Virus record (IMG/VR): IMGVR_UViG_3300040801_001492 | Coordinates: 37,446-101,445 of that record | Strand: one strand, 5' to 3' | From: a virus | DNA: 64,000 nt | Shown here: piece by piece, positions 6,324 to 18,305 of the stretch | How the letters are laid out: each line of letters starts with the position of its first letter | Position numbering within the stretch: position 1 is the first letter of the stretch | The notes under the pieces: generated by a model | What the model was told of the DNA's origin: nothing | The model's database searches: none | The model's input: only the letters and a program-made list of their open reading frames with translations | Made by a program: the position numbers and the translations under genes

Positions 6324-6347
6324 TAGAAAGATTTGTGGGGAGAAAAT

Positions 6348-7481
6348 ATGCACTATAAAGAGACGTTAAAACAATTACAGCTAAATAAACAGAAACGTTT
6401 AGCTGGTGATGTAATATCTATACCATGGTCATTACCTAGATTATCTAAGATATTACCTGGTATTGAAAAATCAAGATACTATTTAGTTACTGCAAGTGCC
6501 AAAGCAGGAAAATCGCAACTCACTGATTATCTGTTTGTTTACCAACCTATCGAATGGTTGATGAACAATATGGATTCTAATATATCACTAAAGATATTCT
6601 ATTTTTCTTTAGAGATGTCTATTAAGGCTAAGTTGCTATCTGCTATGTGCTATAAGCTTTTTCAGGAGCATCAGATTGTTATTAGTCCTCAGGATTTAAG
6701 TTCGGTATTTTCATCTTATATTATGGATGATGAAATTGAACAGCTTATTCAAGAGGAGAAATTTACTCATTGGTTTGATACATTAGAATCGGTAGTTACC
6801 TATCATGATGATGTACGCAATCCTTATGGTATATTTAAAGTAATAAAATCTTATGCTGAACATCCTGATAATGGTAGATACACATATAAATCTATACCAT
6901 GGCAGAATGATGACGGTACGTTTATTCAAAAGACAGTAAGGGATAAATATATTCCTGTCCGTCCTAATGAATATGTACTTATTATTGTTGACCATATAGG
7001 TTTATTACAGCCTAAGGCTGGTGATAATCTACACCAGGCTATTAGTGAGTTTAGTAGCGGATATTGTCTTGAGATGCGTGATAGATGGGGTTATTCGCCT
7101 GTAATAGTACAGCAACAAACAGCCGATTCTTCTAAGGCACAATTTACTGTCAGAGGAGATACTATTATAGATAAGATTAAACCTGATCAAGAAGGGCTGG
7201 CTGATAATAAATATACAGCCAGGGATGTAGACTTGATGATTAGTTTATTCTATCCTAAGAGATATAATATAAATTTCTATGAAGGAATAGATTTAACTAA
7301 GATCGGAGAGCAACATAGAGAGTTTGCAATTAATTTAAACAGAAATGGTATATCTAATGCATCATTACAGTTATTTTTTGTAGGTTCAAATTCTTATTTT
7401 GAAGAATTACCTAAGGAGATAAATGATTTTGATTATGAAAGATATAATCAACTGTTAACTAAAAATAAGAGGAATAAATAA
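6348..7481 (+). CDS. dnaB: replicative DnaB-like (SF4) helicase
   Basis: Walker A ASAKAGKS, FSLEMS, Walker B IIVDHIGLL, VQQQ; ATG at 6348 preferred over TTG at 6333. Confidence 0.85.
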   Translation: MHYKETLKQLQLNKQKRLAGDVISIPWSLPRLSKILPGIEKSRYYLVTASAKAGKSQLTDYLFVYQPIEWLMNNMDSNISLKIFYFSLEMSIKAKLLSAMCYKLFQEHQIVISPQDLSSVFSSYIMDDEIEQLIQEEKFTHWFDTLESVVTYHDDVRNPYGIFKVIKSYAEHPDNGRYTYKSIPWQNDDGTFIQKTVRDKYIPVRPNEYVLIIVDHIGLLQPKAGDNLHQAISEFSSGYCLEMRDRWGYSPVIVQQQTADSSKAQFTVRGDTIIDKIKPDQEGLADNKYTARDVDLMISLFYPKRYNINFYEGIDLTKIGEQHREFAINLNRNGISNASLQLFFVGSNSYFEELPKEINDFDYERYNQLLTKNKRNK

Positions 7482-7482
7482 T

Positions 7483-8187
7483 ATGTCAGAATTAATAGGA
7501 ATTGTAGGAGCAACTGGTACAGGAAAAAGTACAGCTATCATGCAAGACCCTGATTTAGGTATTGAAGGATTAAATCCTAAGGAAACATTTATTATCAATA
7601 TAGCAAATAAACCATTGCCATTTAAAGGATGGAAGAAACACTTTATTCCTTTGAATAAGGATGGGGAAGGAAACTTGCTTAATTCTGATAATCCAATAGA
7701 TGTACTAAAAGTACTGGATTATATAGATAAGGTAAGAACAGATATTAAATATATTATAATAGATGATTTTCAATACGTACTTGCCTTTGAATTTATGTCT
7801 AAAGCTTTAGAAAAAGGCTTTGACAAGTTTTCTATAATGGCAAAAAATGCTTTCGATATACTTAATAAAGGACGTAAGCTAAGAGATGACCTTAAAGTAT
7901 TTGTACTTACTCATTCAGAAGAGTATCAGAAAGATTTTGAAACTGTACGTAAGATGAAAACAATCGGCAAACTTTTGGACGATAAGGTAACATTGGAAGG
8001 CTTATTTACTGTATTATTATATACCCATTCGGAATGGGATGATAAGGCAGAAAAAGGCAGTTACTTCTTTGTTACTAATAGAACAAATGATTACCCCGCC
8101 AAGAGTCCTGTACGTATGTTTGATAGTATAAAGATACCTAATGATTTGGGCTTTGTTAGCCGTAAGATTGATGAATATAATAAATAA
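7483..8187 (+). CDS. Sak4-like / AAA_24 ATPase (recombination, strand annealing)
   Basis: GATGTGKS, IIIDDFQY, LTH, KTIGKLLD..TLEGLF, PAKSP. Confidence 0.8.
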   Translation: MSELIGIVGATGTGKSTAIMQDPDLGIEGLNPKETFIINIANKPLPFKGWKKHFIPLNKDGEGNLLNSDNPIDVLKVLDYIDKVRTDIKYIIIDDFQYVLAFEFMSKALEKGFDKFSIMAKNAFDILNKGRKLRDDLKVFVLTHSEEYQKDFETVRKMKTIGKLLDDKVTLEGLFTVLLYTHSEWDDKAEKGSYFFVTNRTNDYPAKSPVRMFDSIKIPNDLGFVSRKIDEYNK

Positions 8188-8816: not shown

Positions 8817-8852
8817 GTAGAATATTTTCTCAGTATAATTATATAACCATTG

Positions 8853-8886
8853 AAAGTAGGCTCCTATATTGGGGCCTACTTTTTTT
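8853..8886 (+). terminator. Rho-independent terminator
   Basis: AAAGTAGGCTCC-TATATT-GGGGCCTACTTT hairpin + T run. Confidence 0.8.
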
Positions 8887-8898
8887 ATCTATCTATAT

Positions 8899-9948
8899 AT
8901 GGATAAATCAATTATTGATTTTAACGATCCTATCTATGCTAATAGGTCTTTTGTTACTAAAGAATCTTTATTGGAATATGTCAGTGAATATGATATTCTT
9001 AAGAATTATTATCCCGATATTGAACTAGGCACTGTAATCAATAGTCCTCTTCGTAAAGATAACCATCCTAGCTTTAGCTTATTCTATTCAGAAGCTAATG
9101 ATTGTATTCTTTATAAAGACCAGGCTACAGGTGATATAGGTAATATCTTCGATTTTATACAAAGACTATACAATATACCCAGTTATGCTGATACCTTAGA
9201 ACAGATAGCTACTGATTTTGGTATAGATAAATATTTTATTATCTCTAAACCAAAAACTAAAAAACTTAAGGCAACTAAAGCATATCACACGTCTTATAAA
9301 GAAACATATACGTATGAGCTTAAGATAGTAGCTAGAGACTGGAAAGAATCAGATTTAGTTTTTTGGGATTCATTTGGTATATGTCTGGACACATTAAAAC
9401 GATTTAATGTAGTACCTATAGAAGGTTATTATTCTAATAACCAAGGTACTTCTATTTATGTTAATACAAGGGATTTAAGCTATGCTTTTTTAGAATATAA
9501 AGATTTACAACTTACTTATAAGATATATAGACCATTTCAGAGTAAAGAACGTAAATGGCGAACTAATCATCCTTATGGTGTTCATCAGGGATATAACCAG
9601 TTACCTCATATAGGTGAACATCTGATAATCACCAAATCATTGAAAGATGTAATGTCTTTATATGATGTAGCATCTATTCCTTCTATTGCTATACAAGCAG
9701 AAACTAATTCTATTAAGCCTCAAGTTATGAATGAATATATCAGTAGGTTTAATAATGTTTATACACTCTTTGATACTGATATAACAGGATTAGAAAGTAT
9801 GCTTAAATATCTCAAAAAGTATAATATTATAGGTATTAGTATTCCTATAAAAAAATATCCATTAGCAAAAGATTTTAGTGACTTAGTAAAATTTTATGGT
9901 AGTGAAAAAGCATTATATTTCTTAAATAACAAATTAAAAATTTCTTAA
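8899..9948 (+). CDS. DnaG-type DNA primase (crAss-like)
   Basis: SPLRKDNHPSF zinc-ribbon remnant, TOPRIM ITKSLKDVM / FDTDITG / KDFSD; ATG at 8899 (the track's TTG start lies inside the terminator). Confidence 0.8.
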   Translation: MDKSIIDFNDPIYANRSFVTKESLLEYVSEYDILKNYYPDIELGTVINSPLRKDNHPSFSLFYSEANDCILYKDQATGDIGNIFDFIQRLYNIPSYADTLEQIATDFGIDKYFIISKPKTKKLKATKAYHTSYKETYTYELKIVARDWKESDLVFWDSFGICLDTLKRFNVVPIEGYYSNNQGTSIYVNTRDLSYAFLEYKDLQLTYKIYRPFQSKERKWRTNHPYGVHQGYNQLPHIGEHLIITKSLKDVMSLYDVASIPSIAIQAETNSIKPQVMNEYISRFNNVYTLFDTDITGLESMLKYLKKYNIIGISIPIKKYPLAKDFSDLVKFYGSEKALYFLNNKLKIS

Positions 9949-9950
9949 TT

Positions 9951-10655
9951 ATGGTAACAAAACTTATTTGTAAGACGCCTAAACATTATCAACTTACTGA
10001 AGGTAAAGTATATGAAGTAGTTGAATTTGTTAATGGTGAAACAAGTGTATTATTAACTAATGATTTAGGTGTTCTAAAACGCTATTCCATGAAACTTTTT
10101 GAAAAAGAAGTAAGTGTAGATACTCTGTTTGATGAAATAATAAAAGAACTTAATTTTAAAATGCCTGTTACTCGTCCTCAAGGCAATTCTTCAGTAATTT
10201 ACTTTGAAATTTTAGGACAACCTAATAATGGATTAACCTTATTTCGCTCACAGACAAGTTGTAGCGTAAAAGATATAGAAGGTATAAATTCATTGATAGG
10301 TAGACTAAGAAGACTTATAGATCAGTATTTAGATCATAATGATAAGGTTAAACTATTATCTGCTAATGACCGATATGAATTAAAGTCTATGTTAGGTACA
10401 GCATTGGCTGATAAAATAAACTGGACTGATATAATACAAGAAATAAAAGCAGTTACCTTTTATTTTGTTACTACTCACTATGATAAACAAGATGGTGAAG
10501 ATGTTTTTGGAGAAAATTTCAGAAATGTTTTAATGAAAACATTGCATTCTATATCTACTACACGTAACGAGAATATTAAAAATATAATAAGAAGAACTAA
10601 AAATTATTCAGGTCAAAATCTTATTGCATTAGTAATTCCAAATCCTATAAAATAA
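9951..10655 (+). CDS. hypothetical protein with N-terminal SH3-like (DUF6501-like) module
   Basis: LICK...LTEGKVYEV...LTNDLG...Y...LF. Confidence 0.55.
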   Translation: MVTKLICKTPKHYQLTEGKVYEVVEFVNGETSVLLTNDLGVLKRYSMKLFEKEVSVDTLFDEIIKELNFKMPVTRPQGNSSVIYFEILGQPNNGLTLFRSQTSCSVKDIEGINSLIGRLRRLIDQYLDHNDKVKLLSANDRYELKSMLGTALADKINWTDIIQEIKAVTFYFVTTHYDKQDGEDVFGENFRNVLMKTLHSISTTRNENIKNIIRRTKNYSGQNLIALVIPNPIK

Positions 10656-10662
10656 TAAAATT

Positions 10663-11451
10663 ATGAAAATTCCGAAGATTGGTATTCCATTTTGGAGAAT
10701 GGGAGATAATAGTTTAGGTGTAACATTGCCTTACTATACATATTTTGAACGTTTTGGTTATATTGTAGTGCTTAATCCCATGGTTGAACCAAATCAAGAA
10801 TTATATACTGATATTGACCTATTAGTATTGCCTGGTGGTGCTGATATACTACCAGAAAGGTATAATCATATGCCTAGCCTGTTTACAGGTAAGCCGGACT
10901 TGATAAAAGATTATTTTGATATGCATGTACTTCCTAGGTATATTGCTGATACAGATATTCCTATATTTGGTATATGTAGAGGTTTTCAATCTATAGCTGT
11001 ACATTTTGGATATCCATTAATACAGGATATGTATCATGAAACTAATAAACCCGATAAGAGGTGGGAAAATGTACATAAGCTGTCTGTTAATTCAGCTTTT
11101 GTAGAAGAGATGGCAAAATTTAACGAAAAAATAGAAGATAATTCTGATAAAATATATGATTCACTATATAATATTAAATTACCTTTTAATCGTGAATATG
11201 ACAAAATTAAGAAAAGAAATCTTATTACTTTTTCAGTTAATTCATTGCACCATCAGGCTGTATCTAGTACACAGATAGAAGAAGATAAATCTTTTAATAT
11301 TATAGCCAAGTATCAAGGTGCTTTTGCTCCTTTTATTGAAGCAATGGTTTCTGAAGATAGCAGAATAGCAGGAGTACAATATCATCCTGAAGAGCTGTTT
11401 GACGAACCAATAGCTAAGTATTTAATTTATAAATTATTATATAAAGTATGA
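10663..11451 (+). CDS. class I glutamine amidotransferase / peptidase C26 (PuuD-like gamma-glutamyl hydrolase)
   Basis: LPGGADI, nucleophile elbow GICRGFQ, VNSLHHQAV, GVQYHPE (Cys-His-Glu triad). Confidence 0.9.
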   Translation: MKIPKIGIPFWRMGDNSLGVTLPYYTYFERFGYIVVLNPMVEPNQELYTDIDLLVLPGGADILPERYNHMPSLFTGKPDLIKDYFDMHVLPRYIADTDIPIFGICRGFQSIAVHFGYPLIQDMYHETNKPDKRWENVHKLSVNSAFVEEMAKFNEKIEDNSDKIYDSLYNIKLPFNREYDKIKKRNLITFSVNSLHHQAVSSTQIEEDKSFNIIAKYQGAFAPFIEAMVSEDSRIAGVQYHPEELFDEPIAKYLIYKLLYKV

Positions 11452-11825
11452 AAAAAGAAAGAATTTTTGTTTATGGTACCTTACTAGAAGGTTGTGGTAA
11501 TCATCAATATTATCTGCGTGATGCTAAGAAACTAGGCGAACATATAACAGATTCACAATTTACTATGCTACATTTAGGTGGTTTTCCTGGAGTTATAGGA
11601 ATAGGTAATACAGCTATTAGAGGTGAAGTATATGAGATTACTGAAAATGAGTTTAGGGATATAGATGGTTTAGAAGGATATAATCCTAATAATCCTTCTT
11701 ATGGTCTGTATGATAGAACACAAATAAAAACTCCATGGGGTAATGCATGGATATACCTATATAATCATCGTGATAATCATCATTTTAATAAAATAACCTC
11801 AGGATCATGGAGAAACAAAGACTAA
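11448..11825 (+). CDS. gamma-glutamyl(amine) cyclotransferase (AIG2/YtfP/BtrG-like)
   Basis: IFVYGTL, GEVYEI, catalytic IDGLEG, YDR, AWIY. Confidence 0.9.
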   Translation: MKKERIFVYGTLLEGCGNHQYYLRDAKKLGEHITDSQFTMLHLGGFPGVIGIGNTAIRGEVYEITENEFRDIDGLEGYNPNNPSYGLYDRTQIKTPWGNAWIYLYNHRDNHHFNKITSGSWRNKD

Positions 11826-12601
11826 GAAAACGCCGTGTACAGATACGTACAAGAAATCATTCAGCTAGACCATTAAGGGGTAATATAATGGCTGACCGTT
11901 CAGCTATTGTACGATTAGGTTCACTTACTACATTAGAGGATGCCTATACAAGAAAGAAAAATCTTAATAATATTGTTGAGATAAATACTGTGGAAGCTGT
12001 ACAGAACAGTAGAGATAAATTTGCTATGAAAAAATGTTTTGATAATGCAAAAATCTCTCATGCAGACTATTACATTGATTCTACTAAAATAGATGATAGT
12101 ATAGATTATCCTATTGTAGCTAAACGTAGATTTGGTTTTAAAGGTAGAGGTATGTATCTACTATTTTCCAGAGGTGAATTTTTAAACTTTATGGAAAAGC
12201 AATATGATAAAGACTACTTCTTTGAAAAATTCTATAATTATGCACGTGAATATAGGCTACATATATGTAATGGTCAAATATTTATGGTGTGGCGTAAGTT
12301 ACGTAAGAAAGATGCTGAAGAAAGGTGGTATTTTAATGATTCTAACTGTAACTGGGTAAGTGAACAGCATGAGTTATTTAACAAACCAGTTAACTGGAAA
12401 GATATATGTAAGCATAGTATAAAGGCAATGAAAGCTGTTGGATTAGATTTAGGAGCTGTTGATGTGAGGGTACAATCTGATAAGCACGAAACACCGTTAT
12501 TTATTATTTGCGAAGTAAATAGTGCTCCTGCCTTAGGTAATAGGGGCATTGAAGAATATAAAAAACAAATCCAAAATTTTATTGATAATTATGAAAAATG
12601 A
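11807..12601 (+). CDS. ATP-grasp peptide ligase (RimK-like)
   Basis: N...DK, YPIVAK..G.KGRG, EYRLH, LDLGAVD, EVNSAP. Confidence 0.88.
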   Translation: MEKQRLRKRRVQIRTRNHSARPLRGNIMADRSAIVRLGSLTTLEDAYTRKKNLNNIVEINTVEAVQNSRDKFAMKKCFDNAKISHADYYIDSTKIDDSIDYPIVAKRRFGFKGRGMYLLFSRGEFLNFMEKQYDKDYFFEKFYNYAREYRLHICNGQIFMVWRKLRKKDAEERWYFNDSNCNWVSEQHELFNKPVNWKDICKHSIKAMKAVGLDLGAVDVRVQSDKHETPLFIICEVNSAPALGNRGIEEYKKQIQNFIDNYEK

Positions 12602-13487
12602 TATTTTTATTTTTGATAGTATAGGATCAGACCCTGAGTTTTTCTTAACTGATGAGAATGGTAAATATGTTTCTGGTGCTTTAGTCACTACAGGAGGTAA
12701 GCGTAAGCCGGAAAAATTAGATAAATTAGGTTTTAATATCTTTACTGATAATCTGGCAGTAGAAGGTAATATACCACCAGCATCAACATTTGATAAGTTT
12801 AATAATAATATGCTTAAGCTTATTGATTATATAGGTGAAAGAGCAGAACAGAAGAACCTTAGTGTAGCTCATGTTGGTCAGGCTGAGTTTAGTACAGAAG
12901 ATTGTAATAGTATACAAGGACAGGAATTTGCCTGCTCAGCATCATTATATGCATGGCAGGGTATATATTATAAAACATTTGATGCTGTATCTATCAATGC
13001 CTGTCGTACTACAGATTTTTCTAGAGATAGAATGAGAACAGCTGGTTTTCATATTCATATAGGCTATCATGTAGAAAATAAAACTTTTACTGATCCTTTA
13101 GTATATGACTTACTAGTGGCTAAAATATTTGACCTGTTTGTTAGCTTACCTACTCTTGAGATACAGAATAAAGAAACGTTCAGAGAAGAAAATTTTGGTT
13201 TATTAGGTAACTTTAGAAGCAAAAGATATGGTGTTGAATGTAGGTCGTTAAGCGGTTATTTTACTCATCCTACTTATTATAAATGGCTGTGGACACAGAT
13301 ACAACACATGTTTGAATATATCAACTCATTAAGTAAAGATGAGCTTACAGAGCTTCTGGAACTGCATATTTTTGATGCTCCTAATAAAGCTATGGTAAAA
13401 CAAGAGTTTGAGAAATTTTCACCAGAGACTCCTGATATGATACATCACTTTTCTAATTTAATTAATATTAATACTTATGCAATATAA
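12591..13487 (+). CDS. phiEco32-like COOH-NH2 ligase type 2 (glutamine synthetase/GCS fold)
   Basis: IGSDPEFFL, DNLAVEGN, RTAGFHIHIG, FRSKRYGVECRSLS; ATG at 12591. Confidence 0.88.
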   Translation: MKNDIFIFDSIGSDPEFFLTDENGKYVSGALVTTGGKRKPEKLDKLGFNIFTDNLAVEGNIPPASTFDKFNNNMLKLIDYIGERAEQKNLSVAHVGQAEFSTEDCNSIQGQEFACSASLYAWQGIYYKTFDAVSINACRTTDFSRDRMRTAGFHIHIGYHVENKTFTDPLVYDLLVAKIFDLFVSLPTLEIQNKETFREENFGLLGNFRSKRYGVECRSLSGYFTHPTYYKWLWTQIQHMFEYINSLSKDELTELLELHIFDAPNKAMVKQEFEKFSPETPDMIHHFSNLININTYAI

Positions 13488-15471
13488 TAAATACAACCTT
13501 ATTCTTCTTGTTATTGTTGTAATCTTCTATATCATGTTGCCTGAAGATATAACAGCTGCGTGTGGTTTATTTGCTTTCTTCGGTTCTAATCCTACCAAAT
13601 ATTTTAGCTGGAAAGATTTTAAGATATTAGGTGTTTTTAATGATGCCAGAGGTAATGATGCGTGCGGTATAACAACAAACGATAATGTACAGAAATATTG
13701 GCATCAGGGTATTGTTGAGTTTAAGGATGCTATAATAAAGAAAGAGATAATACACAATTTTACTGTTAAAGACCATATCTTAGGACATACAAGAAAAGCA
13801 TCTAGTGGAGGTAATTGTATAGACACAGCACAACCTTTAATATTCTATAAAAACGATGGCCCCCCATTATCGAAAGCATATAAAGATGAAAATTATAGGC
13901 TTTGGTTGAAAAAACAGCCTAAGAAAAGTATTGTTTTTAGTGGTATACATAATGGTACAATACATAATATAGATAAGTTAGCAGAAAAATATCATGTTAA
14001 AACGAAAGATAAGAATGACACTGCTATGTTATTTGAGATACTGTTTAAAGGACATTATGAAGTACTAACTGAATATGAAGGTACAGCATCATTAGTTTTT
14101 TATGATTACTATACCGAACAGATATATATCTGGAGAGGCGAATCCTTGGCTTACAGCAGTAGTGTTGCTGTTTCTGAAGAAAGACCATTATTTTATTATG
14201 CCCCTGCTAAGAATAATTTCTATTTATCTTCTTTAAAAAACTCATTACTATTTATAGGAGCTCCTGAGAACCATGCAATGGAAGTACCTTCTAATACTCT
14301 GTTTGTATATCATAAAGGAAAACTGGTAAGTAATGTAGCTTATGATAGGTCGAAAGCTAAACAGGTAGTTACATATTCTTCTACAGGTAATGCATGGAAT
14401 TACAGAGATAGTAATAATTCATGGGATAGGTATTCTGCAAGACATTATACGCCTGCTATACAAGGATTTCATAATAATAAGTATGGTAATAATAATACAA
14501 CAGATAAGCTACGTAAAGATGATACTAAGCGTCTTTATCTTGTAACATCTGGTTCATTCTCTAAAGGAGCTTATAGGCTAATAAATGAGAATGTAGCAGC
14601 TATTGCAATAAATAACCCACGCAGATTAGCTTTTTGTAAAGGTAGATATTGGTATGGTAATAATTTAGCACATGGTCTATTGCCTGTTAATACTTTAGGT
14701 ATCATACCACATAAAAAACAATTACCTCTAGCTATTTCTAAAGCTAAACTATATGGGTTTATTGAAGGTGTACTGGTAGAAGATTTAGCATCATATTTTA
14801 TTATGCAAGATACTTATAATAACATATTAGCAGATTTAATTGAAGCAGATAAGATTGATATAAATGATATTATTCTAAAAGAGAGGGATTTACTAGAAAA
14901 TTTAGCTTTCTTTACTGACCATTTTACTGATAGTATAGTATCAGTAAGTGAGATTGAAGCAGTTAAGTTTTTAAACAATCGTAATGAATATCATTATTAT
15001 ACAGGTGTTACACATCCTAAATTCTCTAATAGGAAATATGCTTTTGAAAATGGTGACCTTAATTACATAGAATATATGAGTAATATATCTTATGATCTTA
15101 ACCATACACAGGAAGATGTTACTGAAGTATTGGATTATATAGAAACACCTATGGAATTTTATGCAGAGAAAGGACAAGCTGAATCAGATATAGATGCTAT
15201 AGGTAGAATACTTATACAACAAAAAGACAAAGATATACCTATTTCTTTCTTTACTAAAGTTTTAAGAGGTGAAATAGAATATGATATAAATACTAGTCTT
15301 AAAGAAGAATTTCTTTTAGCTAAATCAATATATTATAAAACATTCTATTCACATCTAAAATTTAATAGATGTGATAAAGACCAGTGTAAAGACTGTTCTT
15401 ATTATGAGAAATATTTAGAATATTGTATACGTTGTGTACAAGAATCAAGTTTAAAAATTGTTACAAAATAA
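13477..15471 (+). CDS. class II (Ntn) glutamine amidotransferase with N-terminal leader and long C-terminal extension
   Basis: CGLF at aa 29, RGNDACG, GHTRKAS, HNGTI, NDT; Cys-rich C-terminus. Confidence 0.85.
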   Translation: MQYNKYNLILLVIVVIFYIMLPEDITAACGLFAFFGSNPTKYFSWKDFKILGVFNDARGNDACGITTNDNVQKYWHQGIVEFKDAIIKKEIIHNFTVKDHILGHTRKASSGGNCIDTAQPLIFYKNDGPPLSKAYKDENYRLWLKKQPKKSIVFSGIHNGTIHNIDKLAEKYHVKTKDKNDTAMLFEILFKGHYEVLTEYEGTASLVFYDYYTEQIYIWRGESLAYSSSVAVSEERPLFYYAPAKNNFYLSSLKNSLLFIGAPENHAMEVPSNTLFVYHKGKLVSNVAYDRSKAKQVVTYSSTGNAWNYRDSNNSWDRYSARHYTPAIQGFHNNKYGNNNTTDKLRKDDTKRLYLVTSGSFSKGAYRLINENVAAIAINNPRRLAFCKGRYWYGNNLAHGLLPVNTLGIIPHKKQLPLAISKAKLYGFIEGVLVEDLASYFIMQDTYNNILADLIEADKIDINDIILKERDLLENLAFFTDHFTDSIVSVSEIEAVKFLNNRNEYHYYTGVTHPKFSNRKYAFENGDLNYIEYMSNISYDLNHTQEDVTEVLDYIETPMEFYAEKGQAESDIDAIGRILIQQKDKDIPISFFTKVLRGEIEYDINTSLKEEFLLAKSIYYKTFYSHLKFNRCDKDQCKDCSYYEKYLEYCIRCVQESSLKIVTK

Positions 15472-15477
15472 AATATA

Positions 15478-16950
15478 ATGACAGCATATACAAAAGATAT
15501 AGACGCAGTAGTTACTACCGTACAAGGAAAGAAAACCTTACGCAAATATTGTCGTTATATAGGCAAAGAGTATCATGAGATTAATGTAGATTGTTTTAAA
15601 ATTAATGGTACATGGTATAGAACTAAAGGTGATAAAATTATTTATGATTATGAACTATATAAATGGAGACTTAAATCAGATGCTCCTTTTGTAAGAGGTG
15701 TAATTGATATTCTACCTAATAATGAATATCAATACGGTCATTTTACTCCTTTGAAAGGAAAAAATATTGATATTATGGTAGGTAAATCATTATATAGAAT
15801 AATGACTGGTATAGATATATCATTGATAGAAAAAGGTAGCCTTATTGAAGGTCGTAATGGTGTCTTCTATTCAGCTGAAATAAAAGATTCTTTTAAAAAA
15901 GAATTAGACCAGTATGTTAATATTGGTGGAAGACAAGCATCTTTTTATAATATATCATGGGATTATAGCTCTGAATATAATATACCTGAATTTCAAAATG
16001 TATTTAGTAATACAAAACTAAAAGGTAAACTATATAATAATTATTATAATTATCTAAAATATACTTTCGGGATTGAGTTTGAAACAGATAATGGTGCTAT
16101 TCCTGAGAGGTATCTTAGACCGATGGGTTTAATACCTTGTAGAGATGGTAGTATAGGTGGTTTCGAATATGTTACTGTACCGTTATATCAGGAGAAAGGT
16201 ATACAGGCTGTACATGAGCACTGTAAATTATTATCTTATTTTTGTGTTATCAATAAATATAATTCCGTACATCTTCATCTAGGAGGTTATCCTAGAACAA
16301 AAGAACATGTTGTGGGATTATATAGAATGTTAACATTTTTACAGGACGATATATATAAATTATTTCCTTCTGCATATAGAAATACTAGTTTATTTAAAAG
16401 ACGTTCTTATTGTGAGCCTTTAGCTTATGTACCAGGTTCGCAAGATATTGATAACTCATTAAGTAATATTATTGCAAGATTAGGAGGACGTTATGATGGT
16501 ACTTTACCAGAAGGTCAACATCATCCTATGGATTTTACAGGTGAACATAAGTGGCAAATTAGTCCTAGATATAAAATAATAAATCTTATTCCTCTAATCT
16601 GGGGTAATAGAGGTACTGTCGAGTTTAGAGTACACACACCTACTATAGATTTTAATAAAGTTATTTATTGGTTATTTATATGTTCAGCTATTTTACAATA
16701 TGCAGAACAAAAATATATGAAATTTACTGTACCAACAAATAATTTTCAAAAATCAGTATCGTTATCTAAGATTATGAAAACTGTTTATCCTCTTGATATA
16801 GCTAATAAGATTATTGACTATATAGATGTTAGGACAAAATACTATGCAAATGGTAATGATCCTTCAGGTGAACACGAAGTATTAGATGAGACTAAGCTTA
16901 GAACACTTCCTGTTAATAATATTAACCCTTTAATTAGAGTATATGAATAG
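15478..16950 (+). CDS. putative amidoligase (Amidoligase_2, GCS/GS fold)
   Basis: TFGIEFET, RDGSIGGFEYVTVPL, SVHLHLG, RYKIINL, GTVEFR. Confidence 0.88.
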   Translation: MTAYTKDIDAVVTTVQGKKTLRKYCRYIGKEYHEINVDCFKINGTWYRTKGDKIIYDYELYKWRLKSDAPFVRGVIDILPNNEYQYGHFTPLKGKNIDIMVGKSLYRIMTGIDISLIEKGSLIEGRNGVFYSAEIKDSFKKELDQYVNIGGRQASFYNISWDYSSEYNIPEFQNVFSNTKLKGKLYNNYYNYLKYTFGIEFETDNGAIPERYLRPMGLIPCRDGSIGGFEYVTVPLYQEKGIQAVHEHCKLLSYFCVINKYNSVHLHLGGYPRTKEHVVGLYRMLTFLQDDIYKLFPSAYRNTSLFKRRSYCEPLAYVPGSQDIDNSLSNIIARLGGRYDGTLPEGQHHPMDFTGEHKWQISPRYKIINLIPLIWGNRGTVEFRVHTPTIDFNKVIYWLFICSAILQYAEQKYMKFTVPTNNFQKSVSLSKIMKTVYPLDIANKIIDYIDVRTKYYANGNDPSGEHEVLDETKLRTLPVNNINPLIRVYE

Positions 16951-17206
16951 AGAAGAACAAATACAATATAGTAAAAATCTTGTTAGTAAAGAGCTTATAC
17001 TACTTTATGGAACTGCTATACAGGATTTATATGCTTATCAAGAGATGAATGATGATAATATTAATCCATTACGGCTATTTATTGAGAATGAGATAGAGAA
17101 ATGCGATTTGATAAGTGAAAATGAAAAATACTATAGCTTAACAGTAATTGATTCGTTAATTTTACATTTAATAGAACTAATAGAAGATGAAAGAAAAATA
17201 CAATAA
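16943..17206 (+). CDS. hypothetical protein
   Basis: 87-aa ORF overlapping both neighbours. Confidence 0.6.
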   Translation: MNREEQIQYSKNLVSKELILLYGTAIQDLYAYQEMNDDNINPLRLFIENEIEKCDLISENEKYYSLTVIDSLILHLIELIEDERKIQ

Positions 17207-18305
17207 TTTATTGGCTGATTATTTAGCAGAAAGACAAGTACTGAAAACACCTGAAGAATATTTTAAATATCCAGCACTATCTTCTTCTATAATAAAGAAT
17301 GTCTGTTATGATCCTTCTGTATTAGACAAGCCACGTGATACACTACCTAGCTTATATATGAATCTAGGTAGTGCTGTTGACCTAATGGTCACACAACCTG
17401 ATAATACAGAAGATATAGTTGTAATGGATAGTATACCCAGTGATAATAATATTCAAATGATTGAGTTAGTATTACAACATTATCCTGATATACAGTCTTT
17501 GGAAGAACTGAATGATGAACAGGTGTCTTATCTTTATGATACTATAGGTTCACGTGTTAATTGGGGTATAAAAGTTAAAAAAGATAAGCTGGTTGATTAT
17601 TCTAATGATTATTTTGTTAAGATAAAAAATAATAAAAATAAAATTATTTTAACAAAACCTTTATATAGCCTTGCTACAGATATAAGTTTAGCATTACAGA
17701 CATATCCTACTACCAAACATTTGTTTAATGGTAGTAATGAGAGGTTTACTATTTTTTATCAATATAAGGTAACATTTAGTTTTAGTGGTTTAGAATTTAA
17801 AAGTATGTTTGATATATTGGTTATAGATAATGTACATAAAACAATATCTATCTATGACCTTAAGGTAGGTGGTAATCCTTTTCTCAGTAGTTTTTATAAA
17901 TTCAAATGGTATTATCAGGCAGGATTATATCAATTAGCATTATCAAAACTAATGTTTGAATTTAAGAAAATATCAAATGCTCATAAATCTTTTGGAGAAG
18001 AATATAATGTTGAAGATTTTACTTTTATACATGTTAATACAAACAATATAAAACACATCTTCCAATATAGTGTACCTGAAGAACTACAAGATACAATAGT
18101 TAGTACAGGTTTATCAGAAGGGTTTAAATATATATATTCTTTACGTGGTATTATAAAAGCTATTAATTATTATATGGAAGCTGTAGAAGGAAATGAAAAT
18201 TCATCTGTTACATATGATAATGTTATGCCATATGTATTACATATAAATAAGGGAGTAATTCCTTTATTTTATTATATGGACACAGACCTAGGTATTTTGC
18301 AATAA
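17187..18305 (+). CDS. PD-(D/E)XK exonuclease (RecE/ExoVIII, DUF3799-like)
   Basis: ALSSSIIK, LGSAVD, KSMFD, IYDLK, YYQAGLY. Confidence 0.75.
   Translation: MKEKYNNLLADYLAERQVLKTPEEYFKYPALSSSIIKNVCYDPSVLDKPRDTLPSLYMNLGSAVDLMVTQPDNTEDIVVMDSIPSDNNIQMIELVLQHYPDIQSLEELNDEQVSYLYDTIGSRVNWGIKVKKDKLVDYSNDYFVKIKNNKNKIILTKPLYSLATDISLALQTYPTTKHLFNGSNERFTIFYQYKVTFSFSGLEFKSMFDILVIDNVHKTISIYDLKVGGNPFLSSFYKFKWYYQAGLYQLALSKLMFEFKKISNAHKSFGEEYNVEDFTFIHVNTNNIKHIFQYSVPEELQDTIVSTGLSEGFKYIYSLRGIIKAINYYMEAVEGNENSSVTYDNVMPYVLHINKGVIPLFYYMDTDLGILQ

Follow-up and report, generated by a model that had tools for sequence, protein, structure and literature searches.

The type of phage amidoligase cassette with which we are concerned here has reportedly been recognised since 2009, in the work of Iyer et al. 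A seven-gene "peptidoglycan modification cassette" was then described in the phages RIO-1, phiEco32, 7-11, PA11, tf, MR299-2, LUZ24, PaP3 and CW02 (Duhaime et al. 2017, PMC5498523) and PMC10580990 repeats the proposal of Iyer et al. 2009, that of a cell-wall modification preventing superinfection, while stating that the function is still to be explored. The present analysis concerns a cassette of six genes located at positions 10663-16950 of a 64,000-nucleotide stretch of viral DNA (hereafter "the window"; bases 37446-101445 of the 101,445-bp IMG/VR virus record IMGVR_UViG_3300040801_001492), the products of which are designated, in the order of their genes, C, Y, G, L, N and A. It is a crAss-like copy of the phiEco32-type cassette, i.e. 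an already known kind of gene set and not a new system, and the function that we favour, by analogy with known pathways and with about an even chance of being correct, is that of a short route of biosynthesis which would use glutamate transiently, as gamma-glutamyl carrier or as protecting group, and release a modified amine, amide or peptide along with glutamate or 5-oxoproline.

The relationship with phiEco32, suggested in an earlier note made from the letters of this DNA, is borne out by the families shared by the two cassettes, including those of phiEco32 genes 77-88. These families are the COOH-NH2 ligase PF14395 (L; gene 86 in phiEco32), the Amidoligase_2 PF12224 (A; gene 84) and an N-terminal nucleophile (Ntn) amidotransferase (N; gene 83), the genes of the latter two lying 6 nt apart in the window, an ATP-grasp ligase (G; gene 80) and a gamma-glutamyl cyclotransferase (GGCT) (Y; gene 77). 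The setting is in both cases one of replication genes, the phiEco32 cassette adjoining primase and helicase genes, and the L proteins of phiEco32 and of the window share 28.9% identity over 84% of their length. On the other hand, the phiEco32 genes have the order L-85-A-N...G...Y as opposed to C-Y-G-L-N-A, several small open reading frames (ORFs) are interspersed among them, no C26 gene is recognisable (gene 85, found in that position, has no Pfam match) and the phiEco32 A protein lacks the N-terminal domain of ~190 residues present in that of the window.

No DNA nearly identical to the cassette was found by megablast among 50,697 phage records. At the protein level, A matches only three phages, namely cr108_1, Cellulophaga phage phi14:2 and Leptolyngbya phage Lbo-JY46. 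The cassette is present in each of them with essentially the gene order of the window and, in the two Steigviridae, directly follows the primase gene. In the cultured crAss-like phage phi14:2 (Steigviridae) it comprises g037-g041, annotated as GGCT, S6 glutaminyl transferase, COOH.NH2 ligase, aminotransferase and amidoligase, which follow the primase in the order Y-G-L-N-A; its A protein is ~28% identical to that of the window over 90% of the length and its N protein likewise begins with a hydrophobic leader. Unlike the window, phi14:2 has no C26 gene, bears genes for uracil-DNA glycosylase (UDG) and RusA between cassette and exonuclease, and encodes ThyX, which the window genome does not. In cr108_1 (Steigviridae, human gut) the corresponding genes gp028-gp034 are bounded by primase on one side and by UDG/exonuclease on the other; the relative order of G, C, L, N and A is that of the window and the A protein is 30.8% identical to its counterpart there. 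The differences consist in two copies of a ~300-residue protein, here called family X, encoded between G and C, in the lack of GGCT and in an N protein that starts directly at Met-Cys.

Such cassettes are among the most widespread phage-specific enzyme sets without a known product: the COOH-NH2 ligase alone matches, by tblastn, 227 phage records, which include phiEco32 (gene 86), PaP3/LUZ24-like Pseudomonas phages and Aeromonas, Vibrio, Proteus and Rhizobium phages. The earlier note had stated that no product has been demonstrated, and this holds true, since PMC5498523, PMC4819975 and PMC10580990 give hypotheses only and a literature search for the product found no paper reporting one. Finding it would give a function at once to genes of coliphages, of Pseudomonas phages that are therapy candidates, of marine phages and of crAss-like gut phages; the copy of the window adds no new principle, and, for testing what the product is, this uncultured genome offers no better basis than do phiEco32, LUZ24 or phi14:2.

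The six proteins and their conserved residues

The cassette consists of six plus-strand ORFs separated by overlaps of 4-19 nt or by a gap of 6 nt. The residues conserved in each family, taken as those invariant or nearly so across 19-71 homologues, are complete in all six proteins; ORFs, family matches and conserved residues thus agree with the original description of six contiguous or overlapping genes having intact catalytic motifs.

The first protein, C (10663-11451, 262 amino acids), is a Peptidase C26, i.e. a class I glutamine amidotransferase (GATase)-type hydrolase similar to PuuD and SpuA, as indicated by its Pfam matches (Peptidase_C26 PF07722, 2.9e-26, 93.1 bits; GATase PF00117, 2.1e-13) and by a conserved triad, C105-H241-E243, on the class I GATase fold; 66 homologues retain both the nucleophile elbow G103-x-C105-x-G107 and H241-P-E243. 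The nearest solved chains are Lin1909 (3fij, 2.9e-11) and the "probable glutamine amidotransferase" of P. aeruginosa (7d4r), and from its family C is predicted to be a gamma-glutamyl hydrolase of the PuuD type. The second protein, Y (11448-11825, 125 amino acids), is an AIG2/GGACT-like gamma-glutamyl(amine) cyclotransferase (Pfam GGACT PF06094, 6.4e-22; PHROG 2520, 3.9e-22) whose Y9-G10-x-L12 motif and E76 are shared by 38 homologues.

The remaining four genes encode the three ligases and the Ntn enzyme. G (11807-12601, 264 amino acids) has no Pfam match and is identified as an ATP-grasp amino-acid ligase by PHROG 2599 (1.1e-28) and by the comparison of its family profile with solved ATP-grasp enzymes (1.7e-12), K106, E148, R150, D219, E236 and N238 being conserved; its start is assigned to ATG 11807 because the basic N-terminus is conserved in the alignment of the homologues. 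A narrower assignment to the RimK-family alpha-L-glutamate ligases was rejected, since the NCBIfam RimK and MptN matches (~2e-8) remain under the curated cut-offs, with 33.6 as against 143.4 bits for TIGR00768 and 33.8 as against 350 for MptN. The ORF of L opens at TTG 12549 and ends at 13487, but its homologues align from ATG 12591, so that the start has been placed at this codon, which yields a phiEco32-type COOH-NH2 ligase type 2 (GS/GCS2-like) of 298 amino acids. Its identification relies on Pfam (COOH-NH2_lig PF14395, 2.3e-6, 27.5 bits versus a cut-off of 25), PHROG 3815 (4.6e-38) and the aforementioned tblastn matches; E16, E58, H154, E216 and R218 (numbered from ATG 12591) are invariant, and the family profile gave no meaningful match to PDB sequences.

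N (13477-15471, 664 amino acids) is an Ntn (class II) GATase, which matches GATase_6 (2.5e-8, 34.4 bits versus a cut-off of 27) and, as a family profile, PurF and GlmS (3e-16), with Cys29 falling on their Cys1. C29, G30, R58, G59, N159, G160 and D181 are invariant in 25 homologues and the glutamine site is complete, with R58 as the arginine for the alpha-carboxylate, N159-G160 as the oxyanion hole and D181 as the aspartate for the alpha-amine. The protein can be divided into a hydrophobic leader (13477-13560), the Ntn domain extending from Cys29 (TGT 13561) to about residue 290, a linker (~300-379) and a C-terminal domain. In the structural model, whose mean pLDDT (predicted local distance difference test) is 65.9, the Ntn domain (29-290) is confident and superimposes with VIA-align on PurF (8w7d; Z 22.8, root mean square deviation (rmsd) 2.8, 218 aligned) and on EgtC (4zfj; Z 20.2, rmsd 2.5, 199 aligned); TsnB9, GlmS and AsnB are matched as well, and every match begins at model residue 29. 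The linker, modelled with very low confidence, is presumably disordered. Residues 300-664, which comprise a poorly conserved C-terminal part, have low to moderate model confidence, no clear structural match and no Pfam match, and neither Pfam nor the structural matches of the whole model revealed a recognisable synthase domain in N. Look-ups in a protein atlas with residues 375-664 of N, as well as with residues 1-190 of A, gave scores all below 0.8 and TM-scores all below 0.3 and are unusable. A CxxC-x9-CxxC, zinc-ribbon-like motif occurs at the C-terminus of N (residues 637-653, ~15385-15435), and Cys-rich tails are found also in several homologues of the leader type (loci L008, L010, L050 and L068).

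Judged from the model, N could be either an ammonia donor like PurF, GlmS and AsnB or, like EgtC, an enzyme trimming a gamma-glutamyl amide, the fold alone being compatible with both. Thus, of the earlier designation of N as ammonia donor, the identity as an Ntn GATase stands, whereas its role may be that of a donor or that of an EgtC-like amidohydrolase. A prediction of the complex between A (residues 1-475) and N (residues 29-540) gave a score of 0.00 with controls not run, and speaks neither for nor against their binding. A fusion of the two proteins of the Rosetta-stone kind was also sought and discarded, the sole longer A homologue, of 920 amino acids, having an extra N-terminal part with neither a Pfam family nor any likeness to N.

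A (15478-16950, 490 amino acids) is an Amidoligase_2, i.e. a GS-fold carboxylate-amine ligase (PF12224 at residues 228-405, 2.1e-9, 38.1 bits versus a cut-off of 22), with E200, E202, D223, H265, H267, R364, E382 and R384 invariant. Its profile found no meaningful match among PDB sequences, and the fold assignment makes use of an AlphaFold2 model built from a 24-row alignment (mean pLDDT 85.1). Residues 177-476 of this model align with YbdK-like 1tt4 (VIA-align Z 11.7, rmsd 4.3, 236 aligned) and, with Z values of 10-11 and a Foldseek E of 2.6e-5, with GS, GCL, Dop and PafA; among the individual structures are 1-naphthylamine GS (8wwu, Z 10.9), the GS homologue 4hpp (Z 10.7), Dop (Z 10.4, rmsd 5.0, 231 aligned), PafA (Z 10.2, rmsd 4.7, 218 aligned) and GmaS (9qur, Z 9.2). 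The characterised members of the GS-type fold activate the gamma-carboxylate of Glu. The N-terminal domain of A (residues ~10-135, 15505-15885) is beta-rich and confidently modelled (pLDDT >90), is common to the crAss-like and Lbo-JY46 homologues and is missing in phiEco32; the fold searches, carried out with the whole model, were dominated by the GS-like domain, so that this domain yielded no fold match.

Recurrence of the cassette and the two types of amidotransferase start

An IMG/VR scan with a four-sequence alignment of A produced 79 loci, and 84 loci in all were analysed by iterated profile searches for the six proteins. L, N and A occur together in 64 of the 84 loci and are consecutive in 54, N and A being found adjacent throughout the set, and the crAss-like arrangement primase ... 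L-N-A-exonuclease is present in ~50. Within the 64 loci having L, N and A, C is found in 50, G in 47 and Y in 30, while all six genes are present in 16; not one of the 64 is devoid of both C and Y (C only in 34, Y only in 14, both in 16). A failure of the genes to co-occur in other genomes had been named in the earlier note as part of what would refute the idea, and no such failure was seen; since the same genes recur in conserved order in dozens of unrelated contigs, their association is not due to chance. Relatives of A in prokaryotes amount to 11 matches in 185,579 species genomes (one per species), all of them on contigs of metagenome-assembled genomes, several of which are of ~100 kb; this scarcity and the nature of these contigs indicate that the A subfamily is essentially phage-borne.

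The survey also revealed that N occurs in two forms. In the window, an in-frame leader of 28 codons, MQYNKYNLILLVIVVIFYIMLPEDITAA, precedes the catalytic Cys and is strongly hydrophobic, with a maximum 14-residue Kyte-Doolittle mean of 3.5. The possibility of a non-canonical start codon immediately before Cys29 was dismissed, because the codons found there are GCT and GCG, both for Ala, and the nearest starts are ATG 13534 and TTG 13537, located 9 and 8 codons upstream, respectively. The sequence implies that for Cys29 to become the free N-terminal residue the leader would have to be removed, and it could thus represent a propeptide and perhaps a membrane anchor. Leaders are present in 20 related loci in addition to the window, whereas 45 of the 65 scored N proteins start directly with Met-Cys; the leader of phi14:2, which is hydrophobic and 31 residues long, lies inside the GenBank coding sequence of g040. 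The 14 distinct hydrophobic leaders, including that of the window, all start at the first residues of the protein without any charge ahead, and in 12 of the 13 others basic residues follow the hydrophobic stretch. A hydrophobic helix without a preceding charge and mostly followed by basic residues suggests an N-out/C-in topology.

The type of start is linked to the composition of the cassette. In fact, N proteins with a leader occur only in cassettes that have GGCT and lack family X (20 of 20 loci, as well as the window), and in 36 of the 45 loci with the Met-Cys type N is accompanied by family X. This split may mark two clades and nothing more. The members of family X are proteins of ~260-330 amino acids with invariant Cys, Asn, Arg and Glu and without Pfam, PHROG or PDB sequence match, whose genes immediately precede the C26 gene in 38 of the 84 loci, often in two copies (L001:4129-6048, L011:5234-7086, L035:5859-6698 and 35 others); family X is absent from the window and, throughout the 84 loci, never stands alongside an amidotransferase of the leader type. 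What the survey imposes on any explanation is therefore a core made of L-N-A and at least one gamma-glutamyl remover, and two mutually exclusive types, one with X and a Met-Cys amidotransferase, the other with GGCT, no X and an amidotransferase having a hydrophobic leader, the latter type having a cultured carrier in Cellulophaga phage phi14:2.

A more far-reaching interpretation of the leader, which we regard as distinctly unlikely, would be that the amidotransferase of this type (in the window, in phi14:2 and in 19 other contigs) is a membrane-tethered zymogen, kept on the inner side of the cytoplasmic membrane by its leader and activated or released by self-cleavage at Cys29, and that the pathway acts on a membrane-associated substrate such as the lipid-linked precursors of the wall. 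Should this be the case, the "cell-wall modification" idea of 2009 would gain its first concrete and testable handle.

Glutamate as a possible carrier and the competing explanations

Altogether, the cassette encodes three ATP-dependent amide ligases of two folds and three enzymes belonging to families whose substrates, glutamine or gamma-glutamyl compounds, are cleaved at the gamma-amide. The co-encoding of a ligase with an enzyme that removes the gamma-glutamyl group is the pattern of pathways in which glutamate is a carrier or protecting group, as exemplified by BtrJ/BtrG in butirosin biosynthesis, EgtA/EgtC in that of ergothioneine and PuuA/PuuD in the Puu pathway of putrescine. In these an ATP-dependent ligase of the ATP-grasp or GS/GCS2 fold is paired with a remover that is GGACT-like, Ntn or C26 in type, and the window contains all three types. 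On the other hand, the acyl carrier protein BtrI, EgtB/D/E and PuuB/C are not among the Pfam and PHROG matches of the cassette and its neighbours, and there is no close sequence relationship with these pathways; the likeness is one of logic and not of membership. By analogy, we infer a sequence of steps in which L and A, both of the GS fold, would activate a carboxylate, most probably the gamma-carboxylate of glutamate as do GS, GCL, PuuA, GmaS and PafA, and join it to an amine. G, as an ATP-grasp enzyme, would add a further amino acid, and N would either supply glutamine-derived ammonia to one of the ligases or trim a gamma-glutamyl amide in the manner of EgtC. Finally, C and Y would split off the gamma-glutamyl group in the form of glutamate or 5-oxoproline, to leave the finished amine, amide or peptide.

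Two functions had been contemplated in the earlier note, a reversible glutamylation/amidation and a protect-deprotect route to a small peptide metabolite, and it is the latter that gains from the survey: a carrier route is favoured over a regulatory write/erase system because in all 64 cassettes having L, N and A the ligases are accompanied by a gamma-glutamyl remover. The former, presented as a complete write/erase system, is the less attractive of the two in that a lytic infection would produce writers and erasers at the same time and no conserved gene for a tag or a target accompanies the cassette in the 84 loci. Several considerations nevertheless weigh against the carrier route. The cassette contains no oxidase, decarboxylase or transferase capable of altering the carried amine after it has been ligated and before it is released. 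The assignment of G to a subfamily is weak, its RimK and MptN matches being far below the curated cut-offs; C may be a class I GATase that donates ammonia instead of a hydrolase, just as N could be either donor or hydrolase. Furthermore, the co-occurrence of C or Y with L, N and A is owed in part to shared ancestry of the sampled contigs.

According to the hypothesis put forward in the literature (PMC5498523; PMC10580990, citing Iyer et al. 2009) it would be the cell envelope that is modified. Stem-peptide precursors would be altered, e.g. by amidation or extension of the D-isoglutamate or meso-diaminopimelate carboxylates on UDP-MurNAc-peptide or lipid II, and the wall thereby changed after infection, either to keep out superinfecting phages or to adjust lysis. 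The signal-anchor-like leader of N in the window and in 20 loci could anchor this enzyme on the inner side of the membrane, the site of lipid II synthesis, and it is established that stem peptides are amidated by glutamine- and ATP-dependent enzymes (MurT/GatD and the AsnB-type LtsA). Yet the leader is missing in the 45 scored N homologues starting with Met-Cys, none of the six proteins has a Pfam match to a Mur ligase or to another cell-wall enzyme, and enzymes of the GGACT type act on L-gamma-glutamyl amines and are not known to act on the D-isoglutamyl bond of peptidoglycan, so that we consider this function unlikely, while granting it some weight. Its more specific version, a lipid II amidation of the MurT/GatD type, was discarded, since no Mur ligase family is found among the Pfam matches of the six proteins and their neighbours and the ligases present are of the GS and ATP-grasp folds. 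If the target were instead a host or phage protein, the ligases would attach to it glutamate or a short peptide, through RimK-like C-terminal polyglutamylation or PafA-like isopeptide ligation, and the three amidases would edit or remove the addition. Peptide tagging is said to have been considered for such ligases by Iyer et al. in 2009, and the weak RimK-family matches of G as well as the resemblance of the modelled A to Dop and PafA at the level of the fold are in keeping with it. The scores of Dop and PafA, however, are no better than those of the small-molecule ligases GS, GCL and GmaS (all within 1.5 Z units), no conserved small tag protein is found (an 87-residue ORF next to the cassette has Q as its last residue, yet the 84 loci contain no homologue of it), and the production of writers and erasers from one operon of a lytic phage offers no obvious regulatory gain; protein tagging is therefore quite improbable. 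Membership in the Pup-type (PafA/Dop) systems was rejected, A having only a fold-level likeness to their enzymes and no conserved tag with C-terminal Gln/Glu being found nearby.

The hydrolases could also serve in the handling of amines, the GS-fold ligases gamma-glutamylating host polyamines, or other amines, that would subsequently be freed, with a Puu/Pau-like control of free polyamines during replication and packaging of the phage DNA. GGACT enzymes do act on gamma-glutamyl amines, C is nearest to hydrolases of the PuuD type (3fij, and 7d4r of P. aeruginosa) and the predicted fold of A fits gamma-glutamyl-amine ligases (8wwu, 4hpp, 9qur); against this stand the distance in sequence of L and A from PuuA/PauA, neither having a PDB sequence match, the absence of the oxidase and dehydrogenase steps of Puu and the fact that the ATP-grasp ligase and the Ntn enzyme would be left without a role, all of which make a function in polyamine metabolism very doubtful. 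The location of the cassette, between primase and exonuclease/UDG in ~50 crAss-like contigs and beside primase and helicase in phiEco32, could finally suggest that the bases of the phage DNA, or its nucleotides, are decorated with amino-acid-derived groups, and thymidine hypermodifications derived from amino acids reportedly exist in other phages, as described by Lee et al. in 2018. But the 99%-complete genome lacks genes for ThyA-like thymidylate synthase (PF00303), ThyX (PF02511) and TGT/DpdA (PF01702), three families of entry enzymes of the known pyrimidine and 7-deazaguanine hypermodifications, none of the six proteins matches a nucleic-acid-binding family, and unrelated metabolic genes expressed in the middle period are common in phage replication modules; a modification of DNA is thus scarcely to be expected.

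Genomic setting and transcription

The source of the window is a crAss-like phage, gut or environmental, whose record has an estimated completeness of 99%; the crAss-like hallmarks include an ORF of 4579 amino acids on the minus strand and a GC content of 0.27-0.40. On the plus strand, genes for a DnaB-like helicase (6333-7481), Sak4 (7483-8187) and primase (8869-9948, the ORF opening at TTG 8869) precede the cassette, which is followed by a PD-(D/E)XK exonuclease (17187-18305) and, further downstream, by ribonucleotide reductase and then by family A DNA polymerase; the cassette indeed lies, as initially proposed, inside the replication module. Where cr108_1 and phi14:2 have a UDG gene after the cassette, the window genome has none at that position. 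Two orphan plus-strand ORFs flank the cassette, one of 234 amino acids directly before it (9951-10655) and one of 87 amino acids directly after it (16943-17206). Both were considered as additional members and rejected, having neither a family match in Pfam or PHROG nor a homologue in the 84 related loci. The 87-residue ORF is acidic and overlaps the 3' end of the amidoligase gene as well as the 5' end of the exonuclease gene; small ORFs are found at the same spot, ahead of the exonuclease genes, in cr108_1 and phi14:2.

A simple consensus scan detected no plus-strand terminator between ~8900 and 19148, and it is therefore likely that primase, cassette and exonuclease genes share a single transcription unit, with which the overlaps and short gap between the six genes agree. 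A strong terminator-like hairpin with a T-run (13 pairs, 6 of them G-C) is present at 8852-8893 (the terminator is placed by the scan at 8852-8883), where it overlaps TTG 8869 of the primase ORF. The true start of the primase probably lies further downstream than this codon, and the transcription unit may begin near the hairpin.

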